Shown here piece by piece: positions 47,322-64,000 of a DNA stretch of 64,000 nucleotides (position 1 is the first letter of the stretch; every line of letters starts with the position of its first letter). The stretch comes from a bacterium (GTDB lineage: Bacteria; UBA10199; 2-02-FULL-50-16; JAJFLM01). The translations under genes were made by a program, and so were the position numbers. The stretch covers positions 392,378 through 456,377 of the forward strand of contig CBDCFN010000016.1 in assembly GCA_965216315.1 (NCBI GenBank). Reading direction: 5' to 3'. A model generated the notes under the pieces. The model did not search any database and was not told where the DNA came from. It worked only from the letters and a program-made list of their open reading frames with translations.

Positions 47322-48131
47322 ATGGATACAACTAGTTTAGCGAAAAAAGTGCGATTGCATGCCGTGCGAATGACCCATTTAGGGAAAAGTTCTCATGTTG
47401 CTTCTGTGTTATCAATGGCTGATCTGCTGGCAGTTCTTTATGGTAAAGTGTTGAATGTAGATCCTTCCCGCCCCGATTGGATAGATAGGGATAGGTTTAT
47501 TCTTAGTAAAGGCCATGGAGGTGCCGGGATTTACGCCGTGCTGGCGGAAACGGGCTTTTTCTCCACAGAAGTGCTTCAAACGCATTATCAAGATGATTCA
47601 ATTTTAAGTGGTCATGTTTCCCATAAAGGAGTTCCGGGTGTGGAATTGTCAACCGGCTCGCTTGGCCATGGGCTTTCTGTTGGTGTAGGAATGGCTTATG
47701 CAGCAAAGTTGGACAAGAGACTGCACAAGACATTTGTTTTGTTGAGTGATGGTGAATGTGATGAAGGATCAAATTGGGAAGCTATTCTATTTGCAGCGCA
47801 CCATAAGTTGGATAATCTAGTGGCTATTATTGATTACAATAAGATTCAAAGCCTTGCTTCTGTTGAAGAGACGCTGGGATTAGAACCCTTTAAGGAGAAA
47901 TGGGAGAGTTTTGGCTGGTCAGTGCAGGAGATTGATGGGCACGATCACTCAAATATCGCGCGAGCGTGTGAACAGATACCATTACATAAGGGAAAACCGA
48001 CCTGCCTTATTGCGCATACGACGAAGGGTAAGGGCGTATCGTTTATGGAAAATAATGTGCTGTGGCATTACAGATCACCTCAGGGGCATGAATATGAAGC
48101 AGCTATTGCTGAATTGGAAGGCGAGAGTTAA
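47322..48131 (+). CDS. transketolase, N-terminal (ThDP-binding) subunit
   Basis: Transketolase_N-like motifs are present: GHGGAGIYAVLAE, and ThDP-binding GDGECDEGSNWEA. Confidence 0.75.
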   Translation: MDTTSLAKKVRLHAVRMTHLGKSSHVASVLSMADLLAVLYGKVLNVDPSRPDWIDRDRFILSKGHGGAGIYAVLAETGFFSTEVLQTHYQDDSILSGHVSHKGVPGVELSTGSLGHGLSVGVGMAYAAKLDKRLHKTFVLLSDGECDEGSNWEAILFAAHHKLDNLVAIIDYNKIQSLASVEETLGLEPFKEKWESFGWSVQEIDGHDHSNIARACEQIPLHKGKPTCLIAHTTKGKGVSFMENNVLWHYRSPQGHEYEAAIAELEGES

Positions 48132-48133
48132 TC

Positions 48134-49096
48134 GTGAGAGATTCTTTTATAAAAAGATTAGCTGAATTAGCCGCGAATGACGAGCGAATCATGCTTGTAA
48201 CAGGTGATCTCGGGTTTGGCGTGCTCGATGATTTTGCGGAGAGGTTCCCCAGTCAGTATATCAATGCCGGTGTTGCTGAACAAAACATGACGGGTTTAGC
48301 GACTGGGCTTGCATTGGAGGGCCGTATCGTTTTCACCTATTCAATTGCGAATTTTCCCATTCTACGCTGTTTAGAACAAATTCGAAATGACGCATGTTAC
48401 CACGATGCGAATGTCAAAATTGTATCCATTGGCGGTGGTTTTAGCTATGGGTCACTCGGCTTTTCCCATCATGCAACAGAAGACATCAGTATTCTCAGGG
48501 CTATTCCCGGAACAACAGTTGTCGTACCAGGTGATGTGTGGGAGGCAGCGGAAGCGACCGAAGCGCTTGTGAAACAACCAGGTACTTGTTATTTGCGTTT
48601 GGATAAATCAGCTGCGAAGTGCTCAAATCAACCGGATGAACAATTTTTTTTGGGTAAGGCGCGCCTCATGCGTAGTGGTACGGATCTTACTCTTATTGCG
48701 GCTGGTGGTATACTTGAAGTCGTTTTGAATGTAGCTGACAAATTACGTTCTCAAGGGATTAGAGCTCGCGTTCTTAATATTCATACAATTAAGCCTATTG
48801 ATCGTGATGCCATTATCCAAGCTGCAGGGGAGACCGGAGGTATAGTCACGGTTGAGGAGCATGTCGTGGATGGTGGGCTTGGAAGCGCTGTCGGTGAAGT
48901 TTGCCTAGAAGATGGCACGATTCCTGGATTCTTTTATAGAGTGGGGCTCAGAGATGGCTTTGCCACTGTCGTTGGCAGCCAGAGCCATTTACGAACCAAA
49001 TATAGAATGGATAAGGAAAGTATCTGTCAGACGGTTCTAGAATTAGTATCTCGAGGTAAAAAGGGACCATTAAGGTCAGCGAGTTCTGCTAAGTGA
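48134..49096 (+). CDS. transketolase, C-terminal (pyrimidine-binding) subunit
   Basis: The Transket_pyr layout is present (…TYSIANFPILRCLEQIRND…), followed by a C-terminal domain. Confidence 0.75.
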   Translation: MRDSFIKRLAELAANDERIMLVTGDLGFGVLDDFAERFPSQYINAGVAEQNMTGLATGLALEGRIVFTYSIANFPILRCLEQIRNDACYHDANVKIVSIGGGFSYGSLGFSHHATEDISILRAIPGTTVVVPGDVWEAAEATEALVKQPGTCYLRLDKSAAKCSNQPDEQFFLGKARLMRSGTDLTLIAAGGILEVVLNVADKLRSQGIRARVLNIHTIKPIDRDAIIQAAGETGGIVTVEEHVVDGGLGSAVGEVCLEDGTIPGFFYRVGLRDGFATVVGSQSHLRTKYRMDKESICQTVLELVSRGKKGPLRSASSAK

Positions 49097-49964: not shown

Positions 49965-51785
49965 ATGAAAACAAGAGCTATCCTCGTAACGACTGATATT
50001 CTGATCTTATCGTGCTCTTTTTTGCTCTCGCATTATTGGTTTGCTGCGCAAATAGATGATCCATTAATTTTATGTATATTGTTCTTAGCCGTTAAGCTGA
50101 TTTTCTTCGTAAAATTTGGTCTTTATAACGCGATATTGAAATTCGCAGGAATGCCGTTGGCAGCAACTATGATTAAAGCCATAACGGCGGCACAAGTGTT
50201 GCTTATAGCGGCAAGTCACATCCTGTCTAGTCAGTCGATACCGATTGGATTCTTTATTGCAGATTTTTTAATAACGGCTTTCCTCGTCGGTCTCGTGCGG
50301 TTTGCTCCACGATATTTTTCGGAAGCGGGTAAGTCTGTCGGTTCAAAACGTGTATTAATTTATGGTGCGGGAGAACTAGGAGTCAGTGTAGCTGAAAAAT
50401 TAATTAGAAGTTCAAATGAATATAGGTTGTTGGGTTTTTTAGATGACCGTGATTCAAAAATTGGAAAGAGAATTCACAATCTTCCCGTCTATGGGTCACG
50501 ACAGGACGTTTCTGCAATTGTCGCTAAGTTAAAGGTGTCCGAGGTGATCGTGGCTATAGCGAGTATCACAGGTCAGAATCTAAGGCAAATAGCCCGAGAA
50601 TGTCATAGAAATGGTGTGATTTGCCGCATCGTTCCTTCGTTCCCTGATATGATGAAAAAAGATGTAAGCGTCAAGAATATCGATATTAAAGATCTCTTGA
50701 AGAGAAAACCCAATGATTTAGATGAAGTGATGATCAAGAAGTTTATTAAAGATAGAGCCATGTTGATTACAGGTGCGGGGGGGTCAATAGGTGCGGAAAT
50801 GGCAAGGCAATGTATTAAGTACGGTGCCAGAAAATTGGTATTAGTCGATCAATCAGAATATAATTTATATTCACTTCAAGAAGAGCTAGAATCATCAAAC
50901 ATCTCAATTAGATATTGCTTGAGTGATGTTCTTTGTAAGGAGAGTCTTGAAAAAATATTTTCAGAAGAGCGGCCTTCGATCGTATTTCATGCAGCGGCGT
51001 ATAAGCATGTACCTATAGTCGAGGACAATGTTTTTACGGGAGTTAAAAATAATGTTCAAGGTACGATTAATGTGGCGGAATTAGCACAAAAATACGACGT
51101 TGAAAAGTTCGTTCTGATCTCTACAGACAAGGCTGTAAGGCCGAGTAGCGTTATGGGGGCGAGTAAGAGAGTTGCAGAGCTCTATGTGCAGAATATGGAT
51201 CCTCGAGGCTCAACGGAATTTATCGCAGTGCGATTCGGAAATGTTCTGGCCAGCTCAGGTAGCGTTATTCCAAAATTTATTGAGCAAATCAATGAAGGGG
51301 GACCGGTTACGGTTACGCACCCCGACGTGACTCGCTATTTCATGCTGATCAATGAAGCTGTGCAGCTCGTCTTGCAAGCTGCCAGTATTGGGCATGGGGG
51401 AGAAATATTTATTCTGAATATGGGGAGTCCGATTCGAATTTCCGAAATGGCTGAGGACCTGATCTTTTTGGCGGGCAGGCAGCCGCATAAAGATATAAAG
51501 ATACTATATACTGGCTTGCGACCAGGTGAGAAGTTATATGAGGAATTATTAATTGATGAGACGGAGAAGAAGACTCAATACGAAAATATCACAATAGGGC
51601 GCGCTATCTATTTGGACTGGGGTTCGTTGAAAAAAAATATTCAGCTTCTTAGTGAGGCCATCGAGACGCATAATAGAGGGAGATTATTGAACACATTGAG
51701 GGTGCTTGTTCCGGAATTTGCTCATGAATCGTTCGAGGGGCCTCTTAAGGGTGCCAAGGTCGTTGCGTTGCCTCTGCCATCTTAA
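49965..51785 (+). CDS. membrane-anchored UDP-GlcNAc 4,6-dehydratase (WbpM/PglF/CapD family)
   Basis: 606 aa with N-terminal TM segments. The catalytic domain carries LITGAGGSIGAEMARQ and a YxxxK motif. Confidence 0.85.
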   Translation: MKTRAILVTTDILILSCSFLLSHYWFAAQIDDPLILCILFLAVKLIFFVKFGLYNAILKFAGMPLAATMIKAITAAQVLLIAASHILSSQSIPIGFFIADFLITAFLVGLVRFAPRYFSEAGKSVGSKRVLIYGAGELGVSVAEKLIRSSNEYRLLGFLDDRDSKIGKRIHNLPVYGSRQDVSAIVAKLKVSEVIVAIASITGQNLRQIARECHRNGVICRIVPSFPDMMKKDVSVKNIDIKDLLKRKPNDLDEVMIKKFIKDRAMLITGAGGSIGAEMARQCIKYGARKLVLVDQSEYNLYSLQEELESSNISIRYCLSDVLCKESLEKIFSEERPSIVFHAAAYKHVPIVEDNVFTGVKNNVQGTINVAELAQKYDVEKFVLISTDKAVRPSSVMGASKRVAELYVQNMDPRGSTEFIAVRFGNVLASSGSVIPKFIEQINEGGPVTVTHPDVTRYFMLINEAVQLVLQAASIGHGGEIFILNMGSPIRISEMAEDLIFLAGRQPHKDIKILYTGLRPGEKLYEELLIDETEKKTQYENITIGRAIYLDWGSLKKNIQLLSEAIETHNRGRLLNTLRVLVPEFAHESFEGPLKGAKVVALPLPS

Positions 51786-51792
51786 GTAATTA

Positions 51793-53085
51793 TTATTGAC
51801 AGTTTTGAGGGAGTGGCATTGTGCCCGCGAGAACTTCGCGGGCACAATTATTATTAATGATTTCTTCCGAAGTCAGTGAGCGGTTATAGACAGCAACATC
51901 ATCCAGTAACCCATGAAAATTATACTGCGTAGCTGTTGGCGCACCACTGAGATCAACAGAGCCACCTATCCGGTTGTCAATTGAACTCAAAGTTGTCCCA
52001 TTTAGATTGTCATAAACTGGAATTGAAGCTAATTCGGCACCACCTAAGAAGAACTTAGCACCAGAAGCTAAAGTGCTGCCATCGTAAGTTACGGCGACAC
52101 TTTGCATAGTGCCTGGAGCAGCGAAAGTCATCATTGAGTCAATTCTAAGGCGGTTGTCTGCTGAATTATCGCTGGTGTAAACAAAGTTTAGGTGATCGGA
52201 AGCATCGTAACCGAACCAGAAACCCCTTGAAAGAGATGGATTTGTATAGTCAGCATTGCTGAGTATCGTATGATCAGAGCCGGCTGAATCGCGTCTTGTC
52301 CATGCCTCAATGCTGAAAGCATCTGTCGAGTCAAAATTAAAGACATTGCCGATAGTGATGAAATCATTTACGCCGTCAAAGTTTACAGCGCCTCCTACAT
52401 GACCTTGTGTCCATGCGACAGCAAGATTAAAATTAGTCAAGGTTCCGCTATTCCCTACGCTGCTTGAGTCAATAGCAGTACCTCCTGCCCCATCATCCAT
52501 TCGCCACCAGCCTATCAATGAATTATCGGTCGAGAAGCCCGCGATATCACTGTAATTGGAAAAGGAAGCATCACTATAAACCGTTCTAACTTTCCAGTAG
52601 TACTGTGACGAAACAGCGAGCGAATCAATAACATCGTATTGAGTCGTAACCTGTATAGCGTTTGGGCAAAGATCAGGTCCGTCTATCGATGGCAGTCCTT
52701 GAGATGATTGGCATACTTGATATCCGCTAATGCTTTTTTCATTTACAGGTGGGAGCTCGCCATCCTGCCAAAATAAGAAGGCCCGTGTTGGAGTCAATTG
52801 GGCTCCATTTATTGGGCGAAGAATTGCGGGCGTTCCATCAAATGGGGTTCCTGCATCTACACTGCCAGCATCTGTCCCCGTATCCGTTGTGTCTCCATCT
52901 GTTGAGCCATCTGTTCCGCCATCAGTGCTGGAGCCAGCAATGAAGGGATCGCTAAAACACCCGACTGTCATCATTGATAAGGCGATTGGTACCAAGAGTA
53001 GCGAGTTGTGTGCTGTGTGAGCTGAAGCCATTACTGTGCTTGAGCCATGTAATGACGAATTTATCGAGGTGGTGCAGGCTAACAT
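51793..53085 (-). CDS. LamG/Fn3-like lipoprotein, paralog A (most divergent copy)
   Basis: Lipobox LSMMTVGC. A Thr/Gly/Asp-rich linker follows. The Fn3-like module ends in YYWKVRTVY. The LamG module carries FDGVNDF…FSIEAW…VAVTYDG…LDDVAVYNRSLT. The tail reads NNCAREVLAG…NCQ. An AGGAG RBS lies upstream. Confidence 0.6.
   Translation of the reverse strand: MLACTTSINSSLHGSSTVMASAHTAHNSLLLVPIALSMMTVGCFSDPFIAGSSTDGGTDGSTDGDTTDTGTDAGSVDAGTPFDGTPAILRPINGAQLTPTRAFLFWQDGELPPVNEKSISGYQVCQSSQGLPSIDGPDLCPNAIQVTTQYDVIDSLAVSSQYYWKVRTVYSDASFSNYSDIAGFSTDNSLIGWWRMDDGAGGTAIDSSSVGNSGTLTNFNLAVAWTQGHVGGAVNFDGVNDFITIGNVFNFDSTDAFSIEAWTRRDSAGSDHTILSNADYTNPSLSRGFWFGYDASDHLNFVYTSDNSADNRLRIDSMMTFAAPGTMQSVAVTYDGSTLASGAKFFLGGAELASIPVYDNLNGTTLSSIDNRIGGSVDLSGAPTATQYNFHGLLDDVAVYNRSLTSEEIINNNCAREVLAGTMPLPQNCQ
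51818..51848. terminator. perfect 11-bp-stem hairpin (tgtgcccgcga-gaac-tcgcgggcaca) between convergent transcription units
   Basis: The hairpin lies about 35 nt past the wbpM-like stop. On the other strand it sits inside the last roughly 18 codons (CAREVLAGT) of the first LamG gene. Hand-counted coordinates may be off by 1-2 nt. Confidence 0.4.
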
Positions 53086-53106
53086 CTGAAACTCCTCAAG
53101 GATTAT

Positions 53107-54570
53107 TTACTGACAAATTAATGGCAACGGGCTAGATCCGGCTAAGGCCTCACGAGAACAAGTTTCATTGATGACTTCAGGAAGAGTCAGTACTCGGGAA
53201 TATACAGCTACATCATCGAGGACACCATCAAAGTTGTAGAGGGAAGCGAGTGGCATTCCAGATGTATCAACAGAGCCACCAAGCCGCGTCGGAGCTGAGT
53301 TGAGGGTTGTGCCGGACAGATTATCATTGGTTAGAGTCGTAGCATCTTCAACGCCATCAACGTACATTTTAACGCCTGAGGCTGAAAGCGAGCCATCGTA
53401 GCTTAAGGCCACATGATGGGGTGTCCCAGCGCCAAATAGAGTTGTTGAATCAACCCTGATTTGATCCCCCGTACTATTATCACTATTAAGAGTGAAATTA
53501 AGATTGCCTGAGGCAATAAAGCCGAACCAGTAGCCACGCTGCAATGTAGAATCAGTATAATCGGTTCTACTGATAATCGTATCATCAGTACCAGTGGATT
53601 GGCGGTTAGTCCATGCCGAGATCGTATAGGGGGTTGTTGAATCAAAATTTAAAATATTCCCTAGTTCAACAAAGTCGTCAGTACCATCGAAGCTTAGGGC
53701 ACCACCAATAAGGCCAGGTGTCCAGGCGGTTGAAGTATCAAAATTAGTCAGGGTGCCGTTATTGCCCGCACTGCTGGAATCACTGGCTGTGCTGCCGGAA
53801 CCTTCATTGAAGCGCCACCAGCCGAGCAGAGAGTTATCGGTAGAAAAGGATCTAACTGGACTATAGTCGGTGCAATCGGCTTCTATGGCGTCGTAACAGG
53901 TTTGGACCTTCCAAAAATAACTTTGCGAGGGGGTTAAAGGATCGATGACACGGAAGCGATTGGTGTCGATGGTTTCATTGGGGCACTCGTCGGCATCATC
54001 GATATCGGCCAGCCCGACCGCGGTGTAGCAGGAACGATACCAGGTGGAGTTGCCTCCCGGAATGACGCCGTCTTGCCAGGACATAAAGGCGCGTGCGGGT
54101 GGCAATGTCTGTCCATCGGTGGGGAGCGATTGAGTTGGGATGTGGTCGGAGGGATATTCCATTCCACCATCCGTCGTGCCACTGTCGTCACCGCTATCAC
54201 TACCAGCATCGACTGGAGGTGTTCCACTATCGTCGGGACCTCCGTCACCCGTAGTCCCGCCATCCGATGTGCCGAGTCCACTCGGATCAAATGTACACGC
54301 TCCCAATAAGCAAACGACAGCTCCTAGCAGAGCTACAGGCACTAAACGTAAGGCAGATTTAAATAGCTTGGCTCCTTCATCAGGACGCTGAACTGAAGGG
54401 CTTTGTTTAGTAAGGATGGAGCTGTTTGGCGCAACCGAGCCCGTGAGTGAACTACTAGCAGAAACGCTTGGAGCACCTGCTTGTGCCATGTTTTGCGTAG
54501 GAATGCCCACACTGCTAAGCAGCAGCTGGGACGTCGCCATAGCTGTCGAATTTACACCAGCAAGATACAT
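53107..54570 (-). CDS. LamG/Fn3-like lipoprotein, paralog B
   Basis: Lipobox LLGAC. Fn3-like and LamG modules are present and the tail reads ETCSREALAGSSPLPLICQ. A long N-terminal region precedes the lipobox. Confidence 0.6.
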   Translation of the reverse strand: MYLAGVNSTAMATSQLLLSSVGIPTQNMAQAGAPSVSASSSLTGSVAPNSSILTKQSPSVQRPDEGAKLFKSALRLVPVALLGAVVCLLGACTFDPSGLGTSDGGTTGDGGPDDSGTPPVDAGSDSGDDSGTTDGGMEYPSDHIPTQSLPTDGQTLPPARAFMSWQDGVIPGGNSTWYRSCYTAVGLADIDDADECPNETIDTNRFRVIDPLTPSQSYFWKVQTCYDAIEADCTDYSPVRSFSTDNSLLGWWRFNEGSGSTASDSSSAGNNGTLTNFDTSTAWTPGLIGGALSFDGTDDFVELGNILNFDSTTPYTISAWTNRQSTGTDDTIISRTDYTDSTLQRGYWFGFIASGNLNFTLNSDNSTGDQIRVDSTTLFGAGTPHHVALSYDGSLSASGVKMYVDGVEDATTLTNDNLSGTTLNSAPTRLGGSVDTSGMPLASLYNFDGVLDDVAVYSRVLTLPEVINETCSREALAGSSPLPLICQ

Positions 54571-54671
54571 TTTCGCACCTAGCTCACTGTTCGGCTACGC
54601 TTATAAAAAGTTGCTCCAAATTAGAAAAAGTGAAAAGTTTTCTATATTCTCTATAATTTCAACATGTTATT

Positions 54672-56111
54672 TTAGTTGCATATTAATAGAAAAGGACCAG
54701 CTCCAGTGAGGGCCTCACGCGCACAAGTCTCATTGACGATTTCCTGAGCAGTCAGGGCACGATTGTAGACCGTGACATCATCTATGATTCCATCGAAATT
54801 ATAGAGAGAAGCTGAAGGCATCCCAGTTGTATCGATGGAGCCACCAATCCGCGTCGGGGCGGGATTGAGAGTCGTGCCCGCCAACGCATCGGATACAACC
54901 ATAACCGTCTCTTCAGTTCCATCGACAAAAAGTTTAGCTCCACTAGCCATCGTGGATCCATCATAGGTGACGGCCACATGATGGGGAGTCCCCGGGGAAT
55001 TAAAGAGAGTCGTCGAATCAATGCGGAGTCGGTTGCCCGTACTGCTGTCACTCACCAAGAAGAGATCGAGGGTGTCAGTAGAACTAAAGCCAAACCAATA
55101 ACCTCGTTGCAAGACGGGATCGGTATAGTCGGCCCGTGCAAAGATAGTATGGTCGGAGCCAACAGCCTGGCGGTTGGTCCAGGCGGAGATAGTAAAGGGG
55201 CTCGAAGCATCGAAATTCAAGATGTCACCGAGTTCAACGAAATCGTCAGTGCCATCGAAGGTCAAGGCTCCCCCGATAAAGCCCGGGACCCAGGCAGATG
55301 CGAGATCGAAATTAGTCAGGACTCCATTGTTGCCTGCACTGCTGGAATCAGTAGCGGAACTGCCAGCGCCGTTGTCCATACGCCACCAGCCGAGTAAGGA
55401 ATTGTCGGTGGAGAAGGAGCGCACGGGACTGTAGTCCGTACAGTCGGTTCCGCCCGCATCGTAACAGGTCTGGACCTTCCAAAAATAACTTTGCGATGGG
55501 GTTAAAGGATCGATGACACGGAAGCGATTGGTGTCGATGGTTTCATTGGGGCACTCGTCGGCATCATCGATATCGGCCAGCCCGACCGCGGTGTAGCAGG
55601 AACGATACCAGGTGGAGTTGCCTCCCGGAATGACGCCGTCTTGCCAGGACATAAAGGCGCGTGCGGGTGGCAATGTCTGTCCATCGGTGGGGAGCGATTG
55701 AGTTGGGATGTGGTCGGAGGGATAACCGGCTCCACTATCATCATTGGCATCGGAGCTGGCGTCGACGATTGGGCCACCATCAGGGCCCCCGTCGCCAGGA
55801 CCAATAGTGCCATCACGTGCACCGACATATGAGTCATTAAATGAACATCCAGCCAAAAGACATAAGATCGTGCTAAGAATAAGACTCTCTAATAGCGATG
55901 AAGAGGCGCTTTCTTTAATTGTTGTAGGATCATGAATAGCTGGCTTTTTAATATGCCTCTGTGGCCGAATATTTGCTGTGGATCCAATTAATTTGGATTC
56001 TTGTATTGAGAGCGATGTAAAGGTTTTCTGCGTTTGCAGAGGAGTACTGCAAAGAACAGTTTGTGATAACAACGATGATGATATACCGCTAATAATGTTC
56101 ATAAGGCGCAA
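54672..56111 (-). CDS. LamG/Fn3-like lipoprotein, paralog C
   Basis: Lipobox LLAGC. Its Fn3 segment is identical to those of B and F. The tail reads ETCAREALTGAGPFLLICN. Confidence 0.6.
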   Translation of the reverse strand: MRLMNIISGISSSLLSQTVLCSTPLQTQKTFTSLSIQESKLIGSTANIRPQRHIKKPAIHDPTTIKESASSSLLESLILSTILCLLAGCSFNDSYVGARDGTIGPGDGGPDGGPIVDASSDANDDSGAGYPSDHIPTQSLPTDGQTLPPARAFMSWQDGVIPGGNSTWYRSCYTAVGLADIDDADECPNETIDTNRFRVIDPLTPSQSYFWKVQTCYDAGGTDCTDYSPVRSFSTDNSLLGWWRMDNGAGSSATDSSSAGNNGVLTNFDLASAWVPGFIGGALTFDGTDDFVELGDILNFDASSPFTISAWTNRQAVGSDHTIFARADYTDPVLQRGYWFGFSSTDTLDLFLVSDSSTGNRLRIDSTTLFNSPGTPHHVAVTYDGSTMASGAKLFVDGTEETVMVVSDALAGTTLNPAPTRIGGSIDTTGMPSASLYNFDGIIDDVTVYNRALTAQEIVNETCAREALTGAGPFLLICN

Positions 56112-56287
56112 CCGCTAACATTAAAGATAGTCAGGCTATCCAGCAGTATCGCACCTGAATCTAGCATCGTATTTCATTACAAAAAGTTGTGCAAAACTTC
56201 ATGAGCTGCTGCGATAGGGCTATAACTTACTGTTATTATTTCTTTTATAGGAGTACTTTTTTATGGCTGGTAGGCGGTTAGGGCAGG

Positions 56288-57511
56288 CTAATTGCAAATA
56301 GGACTCAATGCTGACATATCATTGGTTTCTTGTCGATTGAGAGCCTCGCGGGCGCAGGTTTCATTGACGATTTCCTGAGCAGTCAGGGAACGATTATAAA
56401 CCGTGACATCATCAATAATTCCCTCAAAATTATAGAGAGATGCCAGCGGCATCCCAGCTATATCGATAGAACCTCCAATTCGTGCCGGAGCCGGATTGAG
56501 AGTTGTGCCCGCCAACGCATCGGATACAAACGTTACGGCGTCTTCAACTCCATCGACAAAAAGTTTAGCGCCAGCGGCCATCGTGGACCCATTATAAGTG
56601 ACGGCCACATGATGGGCAGTATTCGGGGCATTAAAGAGAGTCGTCGAATCGATGCGGAGCCGATCACCGGTGCTGCTGTCACTAACTAAGAAGAAGTTGA
56701 GGGTGTCAGTAGAGCTAAAGCCAAACCAATAACCCCGTTGAAGGGTTGGGTCGGTATAATCAGCCCGTGCAAAGATAGTATGATCGGCGCCCACGGACTG
56801 GCGGTTTGCCCAAGCCGAGATGGTAAAAGAGTTTGTGGCGTCAAAATTCAAAATATCACCGAGTTCAACGAAGTCATTAGTGCCATCGAAGCTGAGGGCG
56901 CCTCCGACAAGGCCCGGGACCCAGGCGGTTGAGGTATCAAAATTAGTCAGGATTCCATTATTTCCGGCACTGCTGGAATCTGTGGCTGTGCTGCCGGTGC
57001 CATCGTCCATGCGCCACCAGCCAAGAAGTGAATCGTCAGTAGAATAAAAACGAATGGCACTATATTCGGAGACTGTATCGTCATTGTATCTTGTGCGAAC
57101 CTTCCAGTGATAAGTTGTATTTGGAGTAAGTAGGGGAGTGACATCATAAGCTGTTGCGACCAATTTGCTTCCAGGGCAAGCAGCGCCTTGAATGGAGGTA
57201 AGTCCTTCCGTCGTTTGGCATATTTCGAAGCTGCTAATGATCTTGTCCGCCGGAACATTAACTGCTTGCCAAGATTGGAAGGAACGCGTCGGAGGAAGCA
57301 GCGAACCGTCGGGTGGGAATGTGAGCGATGGAATACCACTCCCAACGGCGATGCCACCGACTCCTCCTGAGCCGGTCATTCCACCGAGCTGCCCGTCAGA
57401 ATACTCATCTAGGCCGAGAATCTCACTACAGCTGGTTGCGCTTAGCCCTAAGCCGAATACGAGGAGTGCTCGACCAGCTGTTGAATTAATACTTGTACCA
57501 ATTAGAGTCAT
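56288..57511 (-). CDS. LamG/Fn3-like lipoprotein, paralog D
   Basis: A short lipoprotein signal ends in LSATSC. The Fn3 module is of the second type (…EICQTTEG…CPGS…YHWKVRTRY). The tail NRQETNDMSALSPICN is shared with paralog E. Confidence 0.6.
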   Translation of the reverse strand: MTLIGTSINSTAGRALLVFGLGLSATSCSEILGLDEYSDGQLGGMTGSGGVGGIAVGSGIPSLTFPPDGSLLPPTRSFQSWQAVNVPADKIISSFEICQTTEGLTSIQGAACPGSKLVATAYDVTPLLTPNTTYHWKVRTRYNDDTVSEYSAIRFYSTDDSLLGWWRMDDGTGSTATDSSSAGNNGILTNFDTSTAWVPGLVGGALSFDGTNDFVELGDILNFDATNSFTISAWANRQSVGADHTIFARADYTDPTLQRGYWFGFSSTDTLNFFLVSDSSTGDRLRIDSTTLFNAPNTAHHVAVTYNGSTMAAGAKLFVDGVEDAVTFVSDALAGTTLNPAPARIGGSIDIAGMPLASLYNFEGIIDDVTVYNRSLTAQEIVNETCAREALNRQETNDMSALSPICN

Positions 57512-57513
57512 AC

Positions 57514-58788
57514 CTAATTACAAATTGAAGGCAAGGCAGACATGTCATTAGTTTCCTGTCGATTAACGGCCTCGCGCGCACAGGTCTCATTGACGATCTC
57601 TTGAGCAGTCAGGGCACGGTTGTAAACCGTGACATCATCTATGATTCCATCGAAATTATAGAGGGAGGCTGAAGGCATGCCAGTGACATCAACCGATCCA
57701 CCAATCCGCGCCGGAGCGGGATTGAGAGTCGTGCCCGCCAACGCATCGGATACAACCGTAACCGTCTCTTCAGTCCCATCCACGAAAAGTTTGGCTCCAC
57801 TAGCCATCGTGGAGCCGTCATAGGTCACGGCCACATGATGGGGAGTATTCGGGGTATTAAAGAGAGTCGTCGAATCGATGCGGAGTCGGTTGCCCGTACT
57901 GCTGTCACTAACCAAGAAGAGGTCGAGGGTGTCAGTAGAACTAAAGCCAAACCAATAACCTCGTTGCAGGACGGGATCCGTATAATCAGCCCGTGCAAAG
58001 ATGGTGTGGTCGGAGCCCGCAGCCTGGCGGTTGGTCCACGCGGAAATAGTAAAAGGGCTCGAAGCATCAAAGTTCAAGATGTCACCGAGCTCAACGAAGT
58101 CGTCAGTGCCATCGAAGGTCAAGGCCCCGCTGACCAAGCCCGGGACCCAGGCGGTTGAGGTATCAAAATTAGTCAGGGTGCCGTTATTGCCCGCACTGCT
58201 GGAATCACTGGCTGTGCTGCCGGAACCTTCATTGAAGCGCCACCAGCCGAGTAAGGAATTGTCGGTGGAGAAGGAGTGCACGGGGCTGTAGTCCGTACAG
58301 TCGGTTCCGCCCGCATCGTAACAGGTCTGGACCTTCCAAAAATAACTTTGCGATGGGGTTAAAGGATCGATAATACGAAAAAGGTTGGTATCGATCAATT
58401 CATTCGGACAGTTCGCGGCGTTTGAGATAGCGGCTATATTAGCCGCATGGCAGGAACGATACCAGGTGGAATTGCCCTCAGGAACGACACCATCTTGCCA
58501 GGATATAAACGCACGCGCAGGCGGCAATGATTGTTTGTCAGCCGGTTGTGATTGAAGTGGGATGTGATCGGCAGGATAACTGTTGTCGATGGTTCCGCCA
58601 CTGCCGCCCATTCCGGCTGTTCCGCCCGTCGTTATCATGCCACCGGTTCCACCGGTAGAGCTCCCTGGAGGATCGCCAATTTTGTCCCGGTCGACTTCAG
58701 TTAGGAATGAGCAGCTTGCGACGCCCATACTGAATCCCAGCGCGAGTGCAAGTCGAGAGCTGGTTGCAGATGCCATGAATCCGTTCAT
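57514..58788 (-). CDS. LamG/Fn3-like lipoprotein, paralog E
   Basis: The lipoprotein signal ends in GVASC. Roughly 0.8 kb is about 99% identical to paralog F. The tail reads NRQETNDMSALPSICN. It starts 2 nt after the stop of paralog D. Confidence 0.6.
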   Translation of the reverse strand: MNGFMASATSSRLALALGFSMGVASCSFLTEVDRDKIGDPPGSSTGGTGGMITTGGTAGMGGSGGTIDNSYPADHIPLQSQPADKQSLPPARAFISWQDGVVPEGNSTWYRSCHAANIAAISNAANCPNELIDTNLFRIIDPLTPSQSYFWKVQTCYDAGGTDCTDYSPVHSFSTDNSLLGWWRFNEGSGSTASDSSSAGNNGTLTNFDTSTAWVPGLVSGALTFDGTDDFVELGDILNFDASSPFTISAWTNRQAAGSDHTIFARADYTDPVLQRGYWFGFSSTDTLDLFLVSDSSTGNRLRIDSTTLFNTPNTPHHVAVTYDGSTMASGAKLFVDGTEETVTVVSDALAGTTLNPAPARIGGSVDVTGMPSASLYNFDGIIDDVTVYNRALTAQEIVNETCAREAVNRQETNDMSALPSICN

Positions 58789-58894
58789 ATAATATATCTC
58801 CTTCTCCAGTGTGTGGTGTCGACTAGAGGCAAGAATTGTTGTGGAACCGAAATAAAATTCGTTTACTGGAGTAAACAGCTAAAAGGTGCTTATG

Positions 58895-60754
58895 CTATTG
58901 ACAGGGACTTGGGAGCGGATCCGAACTCGCAAGAGCCTCGCGCGCACAGGTCTCATTGACGATCTCTTGAGCAGTCAGGGCACGGTTGTAAACCGTGACA
59001 TCATCTATGATTCCATCGAAATTATAGAGGGAGGCTGAAGGCATGCCAGTGACATCAACCGATCCACCAATCCGCGCTGGGGCGGGATTGAGAGTCGTGC
59101 CCGCCAACGCATCGGATACAACCGTAACCGTCTCTTCAGTCCCATCCACAAAAAGTTTAGCTCCACTAGCCATCGTGGAGCCGTCATAGGTCACGGCCAC
59201 ATGATGGGGAGTATTCGGGGTATTAAAGAGAGTCGTCGAATCGATGCGGAGTCGGTTGCCCGTACTGCTGTCACTAACCAAGAAGAGGTCGAGGGTGTCA
59301 GTAGAACTAAAGCCAAACCAATAACCTCGTTGCAGGACGGGATCCGTATAATCAGCCCGTGCAAAGATGGTGTGGTCGGAGCCCGCAGCCTGGCGGTTGG
59401 TCCACGCGGAAATAGTAAAAGGGCTCGAAGCATCAAAGTTCAAGATGTCACCGAGCTCAACGAAGTCGTCAGTGCCATCGAAGGTCAAGGCCCCGCTGAC
59501 CAAGCCCGGGACCCAGGCGGTTGAGGTATCAAAATTAGTCAGGGTGCCGTTATTGCCCGCACTGCTGGAATCACTGGCTGTGCTGCCGGAACCTTCATTG
59601 AAGCGCCACCAGCCGAGTAAGGAATTGTCGGTGGAGAAGGAGTGCACGGGGCTGTAGTCCGTACAGTCGGTTCCGCCCGCATCGTAACAGGTCTGGACCT
59701 TCCAAAAATAACTTTGCGATGGGGTTAAAGGATCGATGACACGGAAGCGATTGGTGTCGATGGTTTCATTGGGGCACTCGTCGGCATCATCGATATCGGC
59801 CAGCCCGACCGCGGTGTAACAGGAACGATACCAGGTGGAGTTGCCTCCTGGAATGACGCCGTCCTGCCAGGACGTAAAGGCGCGCGCGGGTGGCAATGTC
59901 TGTCCATCGGTGGGGAGCGATTGAGTTGGGATGTGGTCGGACGGATAAACAGTTCCAGCATCAGTCATGTCGGCCACATCGTCCGGTCCGTCATCTGTAT
60001 CAGTATCAAGGACAGCGTCGGGAGAGGTATCAATTGTTCCATCAGAACTGTCTGTATCAGCCAGGCTGTCACTCGTATTTATGTCAGAAATATCCGCAGA
60101 TGTATCGGTGATTACATCTGCATCGTTTTCATTTATGTCAGGTATGTCAAATTCTACATCTACATCTTGAGGGACGTCTATTAAAGCTATGTCTGTGTCG
60201 GCATCTTCGACGCGAGAATCTTGGATATCTCTTTCCACATCATTAATCGTGTCATCCTCTGCATCTGGAATGAAAAGGTCAGGTAGGGGGGCGTCACCGC
60301 CAATCCCGCTATCGAGGAGATCAGGGTCCAAAGATTCTCCGTCAATTTGGTCAAACCGGCTCAAGTCACCATCAAATTGGCAGCCTGCACTGAAGATTAG
60401 GAGTCCTGCGGTAATGCCAAGTAAACGCTTTGCGAGACTATAGGACCTCTTCGGAGTTTCGACAGTTGATGCAGGGAATCCCGTTCTTTCAGTGAACTGA
60501 AAAGTCTGATTACTCTCTGTCGTAATTGGAATAAAACGAGTCTCATTTGCCTGTTGATGAGTGGGTAGTGTTGCTAAGGTACCAGTTTGTAATGAATTGC
60601 TGAGTGCAAGTGACGTTAATGTAGATGATGTGTTAGATAAGGATATGAAACTCATTTTTTTCTCCGCAATACGTATATAGTAATACCGTTCATATTGCGC
60701 GAAAGAATCGTATTGTTGGATGGAAAGTTGCGGAAAAACAAGGTTAGGTGTCAA
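58895..60754 (-). CDS. LamG/Fn3-like lipoprotein, paralog F (with roughly 110 aa Asp-rich acidic linker)
   Basis: Lipobox IFSAGC. A D-rich low-complexity linker (DVDVEFDIPDINENDADVITDTSADISD…) follows. The Fn3 and LamG modules are present. The tail reads LASSDPLPSPCQ. Confidence 0.6.
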   Translation of the reverse strand: MTPNLVFPQLSIQQYDSFAQYERYYYIRIAEKKMSFISLSNTSSTLTSLALSNSLQTGTLATLPTHQQANETRFIPITTESNQTFQFTERTGFPASTVETPKRSYSLAKRLLGITAGLLIFSAGCQFDGDLSRFDQIDGESLDPDLLDSGIGGDAPLPDLFIPDAEDDTINDVERDIQDSRVEDADTDIALIDVPQDVDVEFDIPDINENDADVITDTSADISDINTSDSLADTDSSDGTIDTSPDAVLDTDTDDGPDDVADMTDAGTVYPSDHIPTQSLPTDGQTLPPARAFTSWQDGVIPGGNSTWYRSCYTAVGLADIDDADECPNETIDTNRFRVIDPLTPSQSYFWKVQTCYDAGGTDCTDYSPVHSFSTDNSLLGWWRFNEGSGSTASDSSSAGNNGTLTNFDTSTAWVPGLVSGALTFDGTDDFVELGDILNFDASSPFTISAWTNRQAAGSDHTIFARADYTDPVLQRGYWFGFSSTDTLDLFLVSDSSTGNRLRIDSTTLFNTPNTPHHVAVTYDGSTMASGAKLFVDGTEETVTVVSDALAGTTLNPAPARIGGSVDVTGMPSASLYNFDGIIDDVTVYNRALTAQEIVNETCAREALASSDPLPSPCQ

Positions 60755-60820
60755 ATAAACTTAACACTTGAATACAAAAGATAGCGATATCTTTAAAGAG
60801 AGTGCTACATCACTCAAATA

Positions 60821-62266
60821 TCAATTGCATATTGACGGTAAGGGATCAGAGCCAGCGAGAGCTTCGCGCGCGCAAGTCTCATTGACGATTTCCCGAGCAG
60901 TGAGGGCTCGATTATAGATCACGAGATCATCAAGAACTCCATCAAAGCTATAGAGAGAAGCTAAGGGCATTCCACTTGGATCAATAGAGCCACCAATCCG
61001 TGCCGAAGCGGAATTGAGGGTCGTGCCTGTTAATGCATCGGTGACTACAGTGGAGGTTTCTTCAGTTCCGTCGACAAAGAGCCTTGCCCCTGCAGCCATA
61101 GTTGAGCCGTCATAGGTGACGGCAACATGATGAGGAGCGCTGGGGGTATCGAAGACAGTTGTTGAATCAATACGAATCCGGTTTCCGGTACTGCTATCGC
61201 TGACGAAGAAGAGATCAAGCGTATCAGAAGAGCTGAATCCAAACCAATAACCACGTTGTAGGGCTGGATCCGTATAATCCGCCCTGGCAAAAATAGTATG
61301 ATCAGACCCAACGGATTGACGGTTAGTCCAGGCGGAGATTGTATAGGGGGTCGTTGAATCGAAATTTAAAGTATCACCGAGCTCTACAAAGTCATTCGTA
61401 CCATCAAAGTTTAAGGCCCCACCAATAAAACCCGGAACCCAGGCGGAAGCGATATCAAAATTAGTCAGGGTGCCGTTATTGTCAGCACCGCTGGAATCAC
61501 TAGCCGTCATTCCGGAACCTTCATTGAAGGTATAGCGTGCAAGCAAGGAGCTATCTGTGTTGACCATGCGCAGGGCACTGCCCATGGAGCGCGAACCATC
61601 ATCGTATAAAGCTCTTACCTTGACATGATAGGTAGAGCTTGGATTTGTAATATTAATTGCACCGAATGGAGACGTTACAGTGTTGCTCTGTGGGCATTCA
61701 GTAGAATCATCGATAGATGTAGTCCCAGTTGTTGTATAGCAAATCTCGTATCCTGCAATAGATCTGCCCGGAGGGAGTGTAGCCGCTGGATCCCAGCGGA
61801 TAAAAATACGGTTGTTGGGCAAAGAGATATCTGTTGCAGGAATCGTAATCGTCGAATTGTCGTCAATGACTGGACCACTGTCACCGGCATCATTGGTGCT
61901 TCCATCTATATCGGCATCCGGGCTTGCATCGGGAATGGGTCCTCCATCGGGGCCCCCGTCACCTCCACCATCGATAGTGACACCACGGCCTCTTCCATCT
62001 AATAAGCAACCACTGCCAAATAAACTGAGCACGCCTCCGATAATGAAAGTCGGTAACACTAAAGCGGCATGGCGAAGTCTGCGCTGGTTTGTTTCGTTGA
62101 GTAAGCGCGTCAGTGTCGAATTTTGCGTCACGGATTCGAGTAGAGGTTGAGCCAAATGGTTCGTGTTCGTTGTACTCGGAAGGCTTGGGGGCAGCTGCTG
62201 TAAAGAACTCGCCAGGACGGGCCGAGCCGACAGTAGGAATGGTGTCATCGGATTGATTAGACGCAT
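60821..62266 (-). CDS. LamG/Fn3-like lipoprotein, paralog G
   Basis: The ATG is preceded by GGAGAAACC. A roughly 60 aa N-terminal region precedes lipobox LFGSGC. The Fn3 module is divergent (…EICYTTTG…YHVKVRALY). The tail reads SDPLPSICN. Confidence 0.6.
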   Translation of the reverse strand: MRLINPMTPFLLSARPVLASSLQQLPPSLPSTTNTNHLAQPLLESVTQNSTLTRLLNETNQRRLRHAALVLPTFIIGGVLSLFGSGCLLDGRGRGVTIDGGGDGGPDGGPIPDASPDADIDGSTNDAGDSGPVIDDNSTITIPATDISLPNNRIFIRWDPAATLPPGRSIAGYEICYTTTGTTSIDDSTECPQSNTVTSPFGAINITNPSSTYHVKVRALYDDGSRSMGSALRMVNTDSSLLARYTFNEGSGMTASDSSGADNNGTLTNFDIASAWVPGFIGGALNFDGTNDFVELGDTLNFDSTTPYTISAWTNRQSVGSDHTIFARADYTDPALQRGYWFGFSSSDTLDLFFVSDSSTGNRIRIDSTTVFDTPSAPHHVAVTYDGSTMAAGARLFVDGTEETSTVVTDALTGTTLNSASARIGGSIDPSGMPLASLYSFDGVLDDLVIYNRALTAREIVNETCAREALAGSDPLPSICN

Positions 62267-62289
62267 GGTTTCTCCAAATTACTCAAGCA

Positions 62290-63747
62290 TCAGTTGCATA
62301 TAGATGGTAGAGAGCCGGATCCAGCAAGAGCCTCACGCGCACAAGTCTCATTAGAGATTTCCTGAACAGTCAGGGCCCGATTATAAACAGCGATATCATC
62401 AATGATCCCCTCAAAATTATAGAGAGATGCCAGTGGCATCCCCGCTGTATCGATAGAACCTCCAATCCGTGCCGGGGCGGGATTGAGAGTCGTGCCCGCC
62501 AACGCATCGGATACAACCGTAACCGTCTCTTCAGTTCCATCCACAAAAAGTTTAGCTCCACTAGCCATCGTGGAGCCGTCATAGGTCACGGCCACATGAT
62601 GGGGAGTACTAGGTGTGTTAAAGACAGTTGTAGAATCGATGCGGAGTCGGTTACCCGTACTGCTGTCACTCACCAAAAAGAGGTTGAGGGTGTCAGTAGA
62701 GCTAAAGCCAAACCAATAACCTCGTTGCAGGACGGGATCCGTATAATCGGCCCGTGCAAAGATAGTATGGTCAGCGCCGACCGACTGGCGGTTGGTCCAA
62801 GCCGAGATGGTAAAGGGGGTGGCTGAGTCAAAATTTAAGATATCACCGAGTTCCACAAAGTCATTGGCACCGTCAAAACTTAGGCCTCCGCCGACAAGGC
62901 CTGGATTCCAGGCGGTTGAGGTATCAAAATTAGTCAGGGTGCCGTTATTGCCCGCACTGCTGGAATCACTGGCTGTGCTGCCGGAACCTTCATTGAAGCG
63001 CCACCAACCGAGCAGAGAATTATCAGTCGAGAAGGAACGCACGGGGCTGTAGTCCGTACAGTCGGTTCCGCCCGCATCGTAACAGGTCTGGACCTTCCAG
63101 AAATGACTCTGAGCCGGGCTTAAGGGGTCAATCACGCGGAAACGATTGGTGTCGATGGTCTCATTGGGGCACTCGGTAGTGTCATCGACATCGGTCATGG
63201 CCGTGGCATGACAGGAGCGATACCAGGTAGAGGCGCCACCTGGGATGACGCCGTCTTGCCATGACATGAAGGCGCGCGTGGGCGCGAGGAGTTGTCCGTC
63301 AGCCGGCAACGATTGCGTCGGGATGTGATCGGATGGATAACCGGTACCACCGTCTTCGGCATCGCCGGCGTCACCCGGACCGCCATCCATATCGGCATCC
63401 GGACTTGCATCGAGGATGGGGCCTCCATCGGGGCCGCCATCACCACCATCAGGTCGCGGCGGAGCGGTGCCGCTTCGGTCTAAGAAGCAGCCACTACCGA
63501 ACAGGGCGAGCAGGCCCCCAATCACAAAAGCGGGTATGGCTAAGGCAGAGCGGCGGAGCCGCTGCCGGCTTGGCTCACTGAATAAACGCGTCAGCCCAGA
63601 ATCCGGAGAAACGGGCTCTAGAGATATTTGGGTTGGCGCCGAAATGTCAGCTTGAGTCTGGAGGCCAGTTGGCGCTGGTGATACAGAACTCGCTAAGATG
63701 GGCTGAGCCGATAGCAGAAAAGACGTTGTCTGACTTATTAGGTGCAT
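62290..63747 (-). CDS. LamG/Fn3-like lipoprotein, paralog H
   Basis: The ATG is preceded by GGAGAACCC. The N-terminal pre-region is homologous to that of G. Lipobox LFGSGC. The tail reads SGSLPSICN. Confidence 0.6.
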   Translation of the reverse strand: MHLISQTTSFLLSAQPILASSVSPAPTGLQTQADISAPTQISLEPVSPDSGLTRLFSEPSRQRLRRSALAIPAFVIGGLLALFGSGCFLDRSGTAPPRPDGGDGGPDGGPILDASPDADMDGGPGDAGDAEDGGTGYPSDHIPTQSLPADGQLLAPTRAFMSWQDGVIPGGASTWYRSCHATAMTDVDDTTECPNETIDTNRFRVIDPLSPAQSHFWKVQTCYDAGGTDCTDYSPVRSFSTDNSLLGWWRFNEGSGSTASDSSSAGNNGTLTNFDTSTAWNPGLVGGGLSFDGANDFVELGDILNFDSATPFTISAWTNRQSVGADHTIFARADYTDPVLQRGYWFGFSSTDTLNLFLVSDSSTGNRLRIDSTTVFNTPSTPHHVAVTYDGSTMASGAKLFVDGTEETVTVVSDALAGTTLNPAPARIGGSIDTAGMPLASLYNFEGIIDDIAVYNRALTVQEISNETCAREALAGSGSLPSICN

Positions 63748-63845
63748 GGGTTCTCCAATTCACTCAATTAGTCGCACCTAATTAAGTCTACCCATTCATC
63801 GCTCATCCCGGTAAAAAGTTGTGCCTTTTTGGATTGGCGCCTAAC

Positions 63846-64000
63846 TCATTGAAAATATTTGATATTTGAGCTTTTAAAAGTGAAGTAAAAGACGAGGGCA
63901 AAGCCCCAACCGGCGAGGACGTCGATGAAGTAATGGTGATTCAAGTAGACGGCCGCAAATGCGGCCAAGGCGGCATAGAAATGGAAACACCAACGAAAAT
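63846..64000 (-). CDS. PAP2-family phosphatase, C-terminal fragment (gene continues beyond window end)
   Basis: The minus-strand frame reads …AALAAFAAVYLNHHYFIDVLAGWGFALVFYFTFKSSNIKYFQ*. The block HHYFIDVLAG matches PAP2 motif 3 (HxxxDVxxG). No start codon falls inside the window, so it is absent from the ORF track. Confidence 0.5.
   Translation of the reverse strand, partial: FRWCFHFYAALAAFAAVYLNHHYFIDVLAGWGFALVFYFTFKSSNIKYFQ

Follow-up and report, generated by a model that had tools for sequence, protein, structure and literature searches.

What kind of gene family is a run of eight neighboring, similarly built lipoprotein genes, and does the patchwork of likeness among them mark a system for varying the cell surface? 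The question is raised by positions 51793-63747 of a 64-kb window (the whole stretch of DNA analyzed here, positions 1-64000) from a 2,397,981-bp contig of an uncultured bacterium. There, eight minus-strand genes share one architecture, namely a predicted lipoprotein signal, an acidic Gly/Asp-rich linker, a fibronectin type III-like (Fn3-like) module, a laminin G-type domain (LamG; Pfam Laminin_G_3), and a Cys-containing tail. A first-pass annotation had described this layout, which we found in all eight genes, and had proposed a recombination-driven family of variable surface proteins. The genes are numbered here from high to low coordinate, such that the letters A to H used in that annotation correspond to G8 to G1.

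62290-63747, minus strand: G1 (formerly H), 485 aa, with a 60-aa polar N-terminal extension, lipobox Cys87, a Gly/Asp/Pro linker, a B-type Fn3-like module, and LamG
60821-62266, minus strand: G2 (formerly G), 481 aa, with an N-terminal extension, lipobox Cys87, a divergent Fn3-like module, and LamG
58895-60655, minus strand: G3 (formerly F), 586 aa, with an N-terminal extension, lipobox Cys92, an Asp-rich linker of ~180 aa, a B-type Fn3-like module, and LamG
57514-58788, minus strand: G4 (formerly E), 424 aa, with an ordinary short lipoprotein signal (Cys26), a B-type Fn3-like module, LamG, and the long tail NRQETNDMSAL
56288-57511, minus strand: G5 (formerly D), 407 aa, with a short lipoprotein signal (Cys28), a divergent Fn3-like module, LamG, and the long tail variant
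54672-56102, minus strand: G6 (formerly C), 476 aa, with an N-terminal extension, lipobox Cys86, a B-type Fn3-like module, and LamG
53107-54570, minus strand: G7 (formerly B), 487 aa, with an N-terminal extension, lipobox Cys92, a B-type Fn3-like module, and the second most divergent LamG
51793-53085, minus strand: G8 (formerly A), 430 aa, with lipobox Cys43, a divergent Fn3-like module, and the most divergent LamG

The open reading frames (ORFs) were first listed at 407-619 aa; the starts of G3 and G6 were then moved to the ATG codons at 60655 and 56102, following the public gene calls of the same contig. All eight copies were complete, full-length ORFs with start codons, six of which had clear Shine-Dalgarno-like sequences (those of G5 and G6 were weak), and every family member on the source contig lay within the array. 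The short gaps noted earlier between some copies are real (23 nt between G1 and G2, 2 nt between G4 and G5, and 21 nt between G7 and G8), and because G2 begins only 23 nt after G1 the two are probably co-transcribed. We interpret the array, with moderate confidence, as a lineage-specific family of predicted glycan-binding lipoproteins that is present in eight tandem copies under purifying selection and has undergone sporadic gene conversion.

Gene conversion was traced using a codon alignment, sliding-window identities, and exact runs, together with the pairwise homoplasy index (PHI) test and a GENECONV-style longest-run permutation, both of which were re-implemented for this analysis. The tracts recovered were the following.

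58935-59737, minus strand: conversion tract in G3, 803 nt with 4 mismatches against G4 57569-58371
57569-58371, minus strand: partner of that tract in G4
55471-55724, minus strand: conversion tract in the Fn3-like module of G6, 254 nt with 1 mismatch against G7 53903-54156
53903-54156, minus strand: partner of the G6 tract in G7
55429-55625 in G6 and 59652-59848 in G3, minus strand: G3/G6 tract, 197 nt with 1 mismatch, overlapping the G6/G7 tract
62908-63006 in G1, 59513-59611 in G3, and 58147-58245 in G4, minus strand: block at the Fn3/LamG junction, 99 nt identical in all three
53735-53826, minus strand: the junction block in G7, 86-92 nt of the 99-nt block
62474-62608 in G1 and 59079-59213 in G3, minus strand: distal LamG tract, 135 nt with 1 mismatch

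The longest of these, which accounts for the near-identity of the E and F LamG segments in the first-pass annotation, runs from the last third of the Fn3-like module through nearly all of LamG. Over its LamG part the proportions of nonsynonymous (pN) and synonymous (pS) differences were 0 and 0.024, respectively, and in the first two thirds of the Fn3-like module the same two copies had 64-82% identity. The likeness reported for the Fn3 segments of B, C, and F likewise extends to the DNA, in the G6/G7 and G3/G6 tracts, with G6 and G7 being only 53-72% identical in LamG. The segment-wise nearest neighbors of G7 disagreed accordingly: G6 in the 5′ part of the Fn3-like module (100%), G3 and G4 at the junction (88%), and G2 in LamG (67-69%). 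Statistical support came from the PHI test (p ≤ 0.0005; observed value 8-14 standard deviations below the permutation mean) and from the longest-run permutation (p ≤ 0.0002 for most pairs). Tract ends clustered at alignment columns 366-440, that is, at the Fn3/LamG domain junction, and thus it is the Fn3, LamG, and tail versions that were recombined. The patchy, non-tree-like similarity that had been described, and its attribution to segmental gene conversion, are both borne out at the nucleotide level by these sharp-edged identical blocks.

A second case was present in another organism, on a metagenomic contig (L082) whose two LamG paralogs (283-2999) had 85-96% nucleotide identity in mid-LamG versus 45-60% elsewhere. 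This genome is therefore not alone in showing gene conversion in arrays of this kind. The paralog pair on a further contig (L001) was evenly diverged, and a literature search on gene conversion among LamG lipoproteins returned no direct precedent.

Could the mosaic have been made in assembly, by reads of strain variants or of different copies being merged into falsely identical blocks? Tandem repeats of 1.2-1.9 kb are well known to provoke misassembly, and for this lineage the only representatives are relatives derived from metagenomes. However, the length of the contig implies that the repeats were spanned, the reading frame is intact in every copy, and the tracts vary in both length and partner. 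Moreover, where G3 and G4 still differ within the LamG part of their tract, the substitutions are synonymous, and the same kind of mosaic occurs in the independent assembly of another lineage, L082. We consider an artifact very improbable.

The two structured domains have been under strong purifying selection. Pairwise ratios of nonsynonymous to synonymous substitution (dN/dS, Nei-Gojobori) were 0.07-0.20 in LamG and in the homogeneous B-type Fn3 class, and no 15-codon window had a pN/pS above 0.55 in a sliding-window analysis of seven copies. Between most copies dS was high to saturated (0.4 to more than 2.5). Because of this saturation, most of the protein similarity between copies is to be read as constraint on old paralogs, and only the few tracts as recent exchanges. 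The tail NRQETNDMSAL is a case in point: reported as common to D and E, it is indeed shared by G5 and G4 at the protein level (pN 0.08) but not at the nucleotide level (pS 0.77), and since a similar tail type was present in a homolog from elsewhere (P0009) it represents an old allele rather than a recent conversion. Similarly, the proposal that the Fn3 modules of A, D, and G make up a single second, unrelated version was not upheld. Those of G8, G5, and G2 can be aligned to the other five modules and show the same conserved W, C, CP, and WKV, and they are as distant from one another (mutual pN 0.38-0.49) as from the class formed by G1, G3, G4, G6, and G7. That homogeneous class was also represented in a foreign protein, P0007. 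Overall, the paralogs differ mainly in the length of the tether (30 to ~180 aa), the Fn3 version, and 10-30% of the LamG residues.

These results bear directly on the possibility that recombination in the array is programmed and continually supplies new pairings of Fn3 and LamG, so that antigenicity or binding specificity shifts within a population. In its favor, the tracts are real and sharp-ended and can be of very low divergence (the pS of 0.024 between G3 and G4), the breakpoints gather at a conserved junction block that is a possible recombination substrate, the products are predicted surface-type lipoproteins with a lectin-like head, and a mosaic pair exists in the second lineage. In the classical systems, Borrelia vlsE/vls, Neisseria pilE/pilS, and Anaplasma msp2, one expression site is fed by promoterless, truncated donors, and the hypervariable regions are under diversifying selection. 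The array resembles these in the segmental, non-reciprocal-looking transfer between surface-protein paralogs, and differs from them in that its copies are complete and apparently expressed and in that the exchanged domains are under purifying selection. Gene-conversion systems for antigenic variation have been reviewed (PMC4534519).

No layout of one expression site with silent, promoterless, or truncated donors was found among the eight complete ORFs, which fall into five units, each with a promoter-like motif. The search for switching hardware gave no inverted repeats, no simple-sequence repeats (Tandem Repeats Finder returned only two repeats, each 12 nt x 2), and no homopolymer longer than 7 nt. 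Consistent with what had been reported earlier, Pfam scans of all window ORFs of at least 150 aa contained no reverse transcriptase, invertase or other recombinase, or cas gene. Nor did the exchanged segments show diversifying selection or hypervariable regions, pN/pS being elevated in no window. The recent tracts are few against a saturated synonymous background, and the tail and Fn3 types that the copies have in common are old and recur in other organisms. The inference of an antigenically or functionally variable surface family is thus not supported, and we regard programmed variation as quite unlikely. No near-identical strain was found, and a metagenome scan using a narrowed Fn3 alignment returned two distant loci, one of which was already known.

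The fold of the C-terminal head is firmly established. All eight proteins matched Laminin_G_3 (PF13385) at 71-87 bits (E-values 1e-19 to 5e-24; gathering score 27.6), and in each copy the match spanned the whole model (positions 1-150/151). AlphaFold2 (AF2) models of G4 and G1, with a predicted local distance difference test (pLDDT) score of 81 and 72, respectively, had the same layout: a disordered N-terminal part comprising signal and linker, a sandwich of 7-8 strands (residues 78-175 in G4), a jelly roll, and a C-terminal helix. The jelly roll was a two-sheet fold with pLDDT above 90 for most of its length. Foldseek placed it with concanavalin A (ConA)-like/LamG modules in the PDB (E-values 1e-8 to 1e-10; root-mean-square deviation 3-5 Å over ~215-250 columns), specifically AbnA domain 4, the PilC lectin module of S. 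sanguinis, a trans-sialidase lectin domain, the Hc-N domain of clostridial neurotoxin, and the LamG of PAPP-A. The family profile also matched the LamG of an S-layer protein (4qvs) with an E-value of 3e-16. The earlier LamG assignment is therefore secure; the hallmarks on which it drew (GWWRFDEGSG, FDGxDD, and IDDVxVYNRALT) belong to the generic PF13385 signature. The NCBIfam model TafC, for a LamG-containing fimbrial protein, was considered and discarded, with a score far below threshold.

For the upstream module, the Fn3 assignment held in part. The family profile matched the Fn3 of RPTP-delta (E-value 2.5e-4), and the AF2 model likewise supports an Fn3-like module. However, all eight copies fell below the threshold of Pfam fn3 itself (PF00041; gathering score 25 bits), only G2 giving a match (19.3 bits; E-value 1.3e-3), and G5 and G8 weakly matched Ig_Rha78A_N. 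The module is thus best termed Fn3-like. Used alone, its profile matched thousands of large multi-repeat proteins, the domain identity of which was unchecked. In an alignment of 16 sequences (the eight copies and eight foreign homologs), the lipobox Cys, the Trp, Cys, and Cys-Pro of the upstream module, the WKV strand, and the two tail Cys were invariant or nearly so, as the first-pass annotation had suggested for the module and tail positions. Ahead of the module, the linker of G3 (59850-60380; ~180 aa) is extremely Asp-rich, with DxD, DTD, and DIxD patterns; it is about four to five times the length of the linkers of other copies, and no tandem repeat underlies it in the DNA. The NET/NGT sites conserved in the family were inspected by eye as bacterial N-glycosylation sequons (D/E-X-N-X-S/T) and rejected, as the acidic residue lies at -3 instead of -2.

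The lipoprotein architecture that had been described also holds as a prediction, with a hydrophobic region ending in a lipobox of the general form [LVI][ASTVI][GAS]-C, in this family L-[AST]-[GA] ahead of a Cys that was invariant in 16 of 16 members and present in further homologs. Residues before this Cys were mostly L, F, S, T, V, or G, followed by G, A, or S; non-canonical residues were G at -3 in G1 and G2 and N at -1 in P0007. Residue +2 after the Cys was never Asp. Under the E. coli +2 rule, which is possibly not valid in this host, the absence of Asp is associated with the outer membrane, and for that reason the sequences suggest an outer-membrane destination.

In the interpretation that we favor, the proteins would be exported and lipid-anchored at the invariant Cys, with the disordered acidic linker and the Fn3-like sandwich acting as a spacer that may hold the head away from the membrane. 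The C-terminal LamG domain, being ConA-like, would most likely bind carbohydrate, be it the polymer made by the cell itself or foreign glycans at its surface. Homologous recombination between neighbors would have repeatedly pasted segments of ~90 to 800 nt between copies, a process that would be concerted evolution of the ordinary kind, in which a tandem family also shuffles its domains, with no programmed switching device. Transcription would proceed from five units, each from an AAC-N16-CGA motif that has the look of a promoter for an extracytoplasmic function (ECF) sigma factor.

The genomic setting of the array suggests what the head might bind. As had been noted, the array abuts a glycan locus, a plus-strand operon of ~40 kb that converges on G8, and on its other side lies a PAP2-like gene.

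49965-51785, plus strand: PglF/CapD-like membrane dehydratase that closes the ~40-kb glycan operon and converges on G8
63846-64000, minus strand: 3′ end of the PAP2-like gene (cut by the window end), upstream of G1

Glycan-synthesis genes or a PAP2-like gene adjoined a LamG gene on four other metagenomic contigs. Specifically, two LamG genes were convergent on a glycan locus in L001, two were convergent on a flippase and an acyltransferase in L082 (preceded at the contig edge by an uncharacterized 51-aa fragment), one was convergent on an epimerase and a PglF-like gene in L083, and a PAP2_3 gene lay upstream of the LamG gene in L086. The PglF-like protein of the window was 51% identical to that at the equivalent convergent position in L083, and its PAP2-like protein was 63% identical over 40 aa to that of L086. 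Since relatives repeat this placement, with a PAP2-like gene on one side and the end of a surface-polysaccharide operon on the other, the family is likely to be functionally linked to surface glycan.

Such a link could be closer than recognition. The proteins might be accessory parts of the neighboring polysaccharide pathway, that is, lectin-like anchors or organizers of the cell's own capsule or exopolysaccharide, with the paralogs tracking polymer variants. The recurrent position beside glycan genes or a PAP2-like gene fits this idea, as do the Wzi homolog, Wzz-like protein, and Wza-like SLBB protein also encoded in the window, and variable glycan loci would account for paralog diversity. 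Yet the array is convergent to the glycan operon and has its own, different candidate promoters, the glycan neighborhood is missing in some relatives, and eight copies stand against a single glycan operon annotated by the Pfam scans in the window. To our knowledge, LamG lipoproteins are not needed in any capsule or O-antigen pathway described so far. We judge such an accessory role unlikely.

Relatives without the glycan neighborhood belonged to the P0012 branch (L084 1318-4017, L085, and L088), in which the LamG lipoprotein gene was the third of a unit, after a 104-aa ORF and a 369-aa nuclease-like gene (weak SNase match), and the unit adjoined an IS481-type transposase. All relatives had one or two full copies per contig, so that the eight-fold expansion looks specific to this genome, these counts being lower bounds because the relatives' contigs are short. 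The eight foreign members came from a word-indexed search, and two loci came from JGI metagenomes. Among the best 150 matches of an exhaustive profile search there were at least 13 further single-module proteins of ~350-540 aa, and 12 of those 13 combined a lipobox with this module and this Cys tail. In contrast to generic PF13385 LamG proteins, which are abundant in Planctomycetota and mostly large, multidomain, and secreted, the array proteins are compact. A scan using the generic LamG pattern GWWRFDEGSG returned 80 loci with hundreds of unrelated LamG proteins, mostly from Planctomycetota, and close relatives were absent from these. The compact combination of a lipobox, a linker, one Cys...Cys-Pro Fn3-like module, LamG, and a Cys tail is specific to this small family. 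With respect to the host, LigA, encoded elsewhere in the window, was 54-57% identical to proteins labeled "Deltaproteobacteria bacterium".

Each of the five long spacers in the array contained a shared promoter-like motif, (G)CAAC[TA][TA]-N14-CGA, whose distance to the following ATG was 21-65 nt.

63799-63821, minus strand: motif CAACTT-N14-CGA upstream of G1, with the look of an ECF sigma-factor promoter
60708-60730, minus strand: same motif upstream of G3
58819-58841, minus strand: motif upstream of G4, CAACAA variant
56167-56189, minus strand: same motif upstream of G6
54591-54613, minus strand: same motif upstream of G7

The 64-kb window contained 9 matches versus 2.3 ± 1.5 expected, and the five in the array all fell within ~0.7 kb of spacer and on the correct strand. 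Because the pattern had been derived from the array's own sequences, it was tested on the foreign loci. The strict motif preceded the first gene of the LamG units in L001 (gene at 1283) and L083 (gene at 1342), at -34 in both, and in L084 and L088, at -60; a relaxed version was present in L082. Promoters read by ECF sigma factors typically have the arrangement AAC-N16-CG(T), and we infer that one alternative, ECF-type sigma factor may drive the five units G1-G2, G3, G4-G5, G6, and G7-G8. A sigma-54 reading of the element GGCAC-N5-TTT was rejected, as the -24 GG and -12 GC are not conserved among copies; the ECF-type reading fits better because of the AAC-N16-CGA spacing.

A second recurrent feature lies at the N-terminus. 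Signals at the extreme N-terminus (~15-30 aa) are canonical in G4 and G5 (Cys26 and Cys28), whereas five proteins (G1, G2, G3, G6, and G7) begin with a polar extension of 60-70 aa, rich in Ser, Thr, Gln, Pro, and Leu (the G1 copy at 63567-63747), which moves the lipobox Cys to residue 86-92. The first-pass annotation made no mention of this extension. None of these five genes had a usable internal start codon by which the extension could be bypassed, G3 having no ATG, GTG, or TTG anywhere in the 91 codons before the lipobox Cys, and the distal ATGs of G1, G2, and G3 were preceded by a GGAGAA Shine-Dalgarno sequence. Comparable extensions were present in five foreign homologs (P0007, P0013, P0014, P0287, and P0292). 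Except for a loose L-[ST]-R-L-E patch, only the composition of the extension is conserved, and the segment is predicted to be disordered. Two candidate functions were set aside: a Tat signal, as the RLRRSAL of G1 is absent from other copies, and an anti-sigma-like cytoplasmic domain, given the predicted disorder and the lack of conserved residues and of a Pfam match. A literature search on extended lipoprotein signal peptides found no direct precedent.

Several points weigh against the interpretation of the array as glycan-binding lipoproteins that undergo sporadic gene conversion. The predicted glycan binding is drawn from fold and neighborhood only, and LamG domains bind proteins and steroids too. 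The glycan link is not universal, since the gene of the P0012 branch follows a nuclease-like gene and not a glycan locus. The promoter-like motif was derived post hoc in the window, its -10 element is CGA instead of the CGT of the textbook ECF consensus, and the 64-kb window held no ECF sigma gene. Furthermore, the extension of 60-70 aa is left unexplained by the model, and as the analysis is based on a single genome, rapid population-level variation is conceivable.

A more elaborate scenario would join these features into a combinatorial repertoire of lectin-lipoproteins in an uncultured "deltaproteobacterial" lineage with a small (2.4-Mb) genome. A dedicated ECF sigma factor would switch the repertoire on, gene conversion at the Fn3/LamG junction would reshuffle it, and its targets would be the differing surface glycans of prey, hosts, or partners, with the extension serving as an undescribed targeting or regulatory pro-segment. 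We give this scenario little credence.

The glycan locus has several features of its own. G+C content was 47-54% in the array versus 37-44% in the central glycan operon. GC skew was positive across the window (0.03-0.22) and fell to 0.05-0.09 over the array, the genes of which run opposite to the prevailing gene direction. At the head of the operon (9156-10150), a MarR_EPS-type regulator was found together with an RfaH/UpxY-like NusG paralog, and this pair suggests operon-specific antitermination of the polysaccharide genes. The operon ends with a Bac_transf gene followed by the PglF/CapD-like dehydratase, and NadA is among the other window genes. Six of its ORFs, of 258-561 aa, had no Pfam match at E ≤ 1e-5 (17876-19561, 24088-25713, 25713-26696, 27389-28984, 30455-31231, and 33899-35239) and may be polymerases, ligases, or novel transferases. 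The operon also encodes an amidotransfer module, comprising a HisH/HisF-like pair and an NAD-synthase-like gene, and a split transketolase with separate N and C halves (sets at 36515-39087 and 47322-49096), pointing to an unusual modified sugar. Finally, a perfect hairpin with a 14-bp stem (ATTGTGCCCGCGA...TCGCGGGCACAAT) is located at 51818-51848, with a T-rich run after it on the plus strand. It lies 33 nt past the stop of the PglF-like gene, on the other strand it falls within the last codons of G8 (the CAREVLAG tail), and the palindrome is apparently missing from the other seven copies, as judged by eye. This hairpin may terminate the convergent glycan operon.

Two described systems resemble the array, in different respects. 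The lpl genes, tandem lipoprotein paralogs on the nuSa-alpha island of S. aureus, are shuffled by homologous recombination (Tsuru & Kobayashi 2008, PMC2568036). The array is like lpl in consisting of same-strand tandem lipoprotein paralogs, in the conserved internal block that serves as a recombination site, in the incongruent histories of the 5′ and 3′ parts of the ORFs, and in the shuffling of modules between copies. Unlike lpl, the diversity of which was shown across many strains (PMC2568036), the array is known from one genome, and it lies beside a glycan locus in an uncultured lineage of Gram-negative type rather than on a genomic island. The folds are unrelated (Lpl versus Fn3-like plus LamG); no homology to the Lpl family was found, Pfam giving only Laminin_G_3 and weak Ig/Fn3 matches, and lpl is an analog in process and not a homolog.

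For the single protein, the comparison is with SusE/F-like proteins such as BT3986 of Bacteroides (DUF1735 plus Laminin_G_3), reported to be a surface-bound sugar-binding protein (PMC11216935). Shared with these are the lipoprotein signal, the Ig-like beta-sandwich spacer, and the C-terminal Laminin_G_3. In contrast to BT3986, the array proteins had no DUF1735 or BACON match in Pfam. They differ from SusE/F-like proteins in their long acidic linker, N-terminal extension, and eight-fold tandem expansion; moreover, they belong to another phylum and lie beside glycan synthesis rather than utilization, and no SusC/SusD or TonB-dependent transporter was detected among the window ORFs in the Pfam scans. 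BT3986 would be the closest working model for one copy, and lpl the closest for the evolution of the array, both of them as analogs rather than homologs. The combination of a lipoprotein with an Ig-like spacer and LamG3 (PMC11216935) and recombination-shuffled tandem lipoprotein clusters (PMC2568036) have thus already been described, and two features are unexplained or new, the extension of 60-70 aa and the promoter motif.

On present evidence, the locus reveals no new mechanism of antigenic variation. It provides a clean and statistically solid case in which tandem lipoprotein genes of a poorly known lineage have undergone gene conversion at the level of domains, and it defines a small uncharacterized family by its lipobox, acidic linker, Cys-Cys-Pro Fn3-like module, LamG, and Cys tail. 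Its conserved place beside polysaccharide loci, the promoter motif shared across species, and the long extension before the lipoprotein signal offer testable handles. Should the proteins turn out to be surface lectins, they would reveal the way in which organisms of this kind sense the glycans around them.

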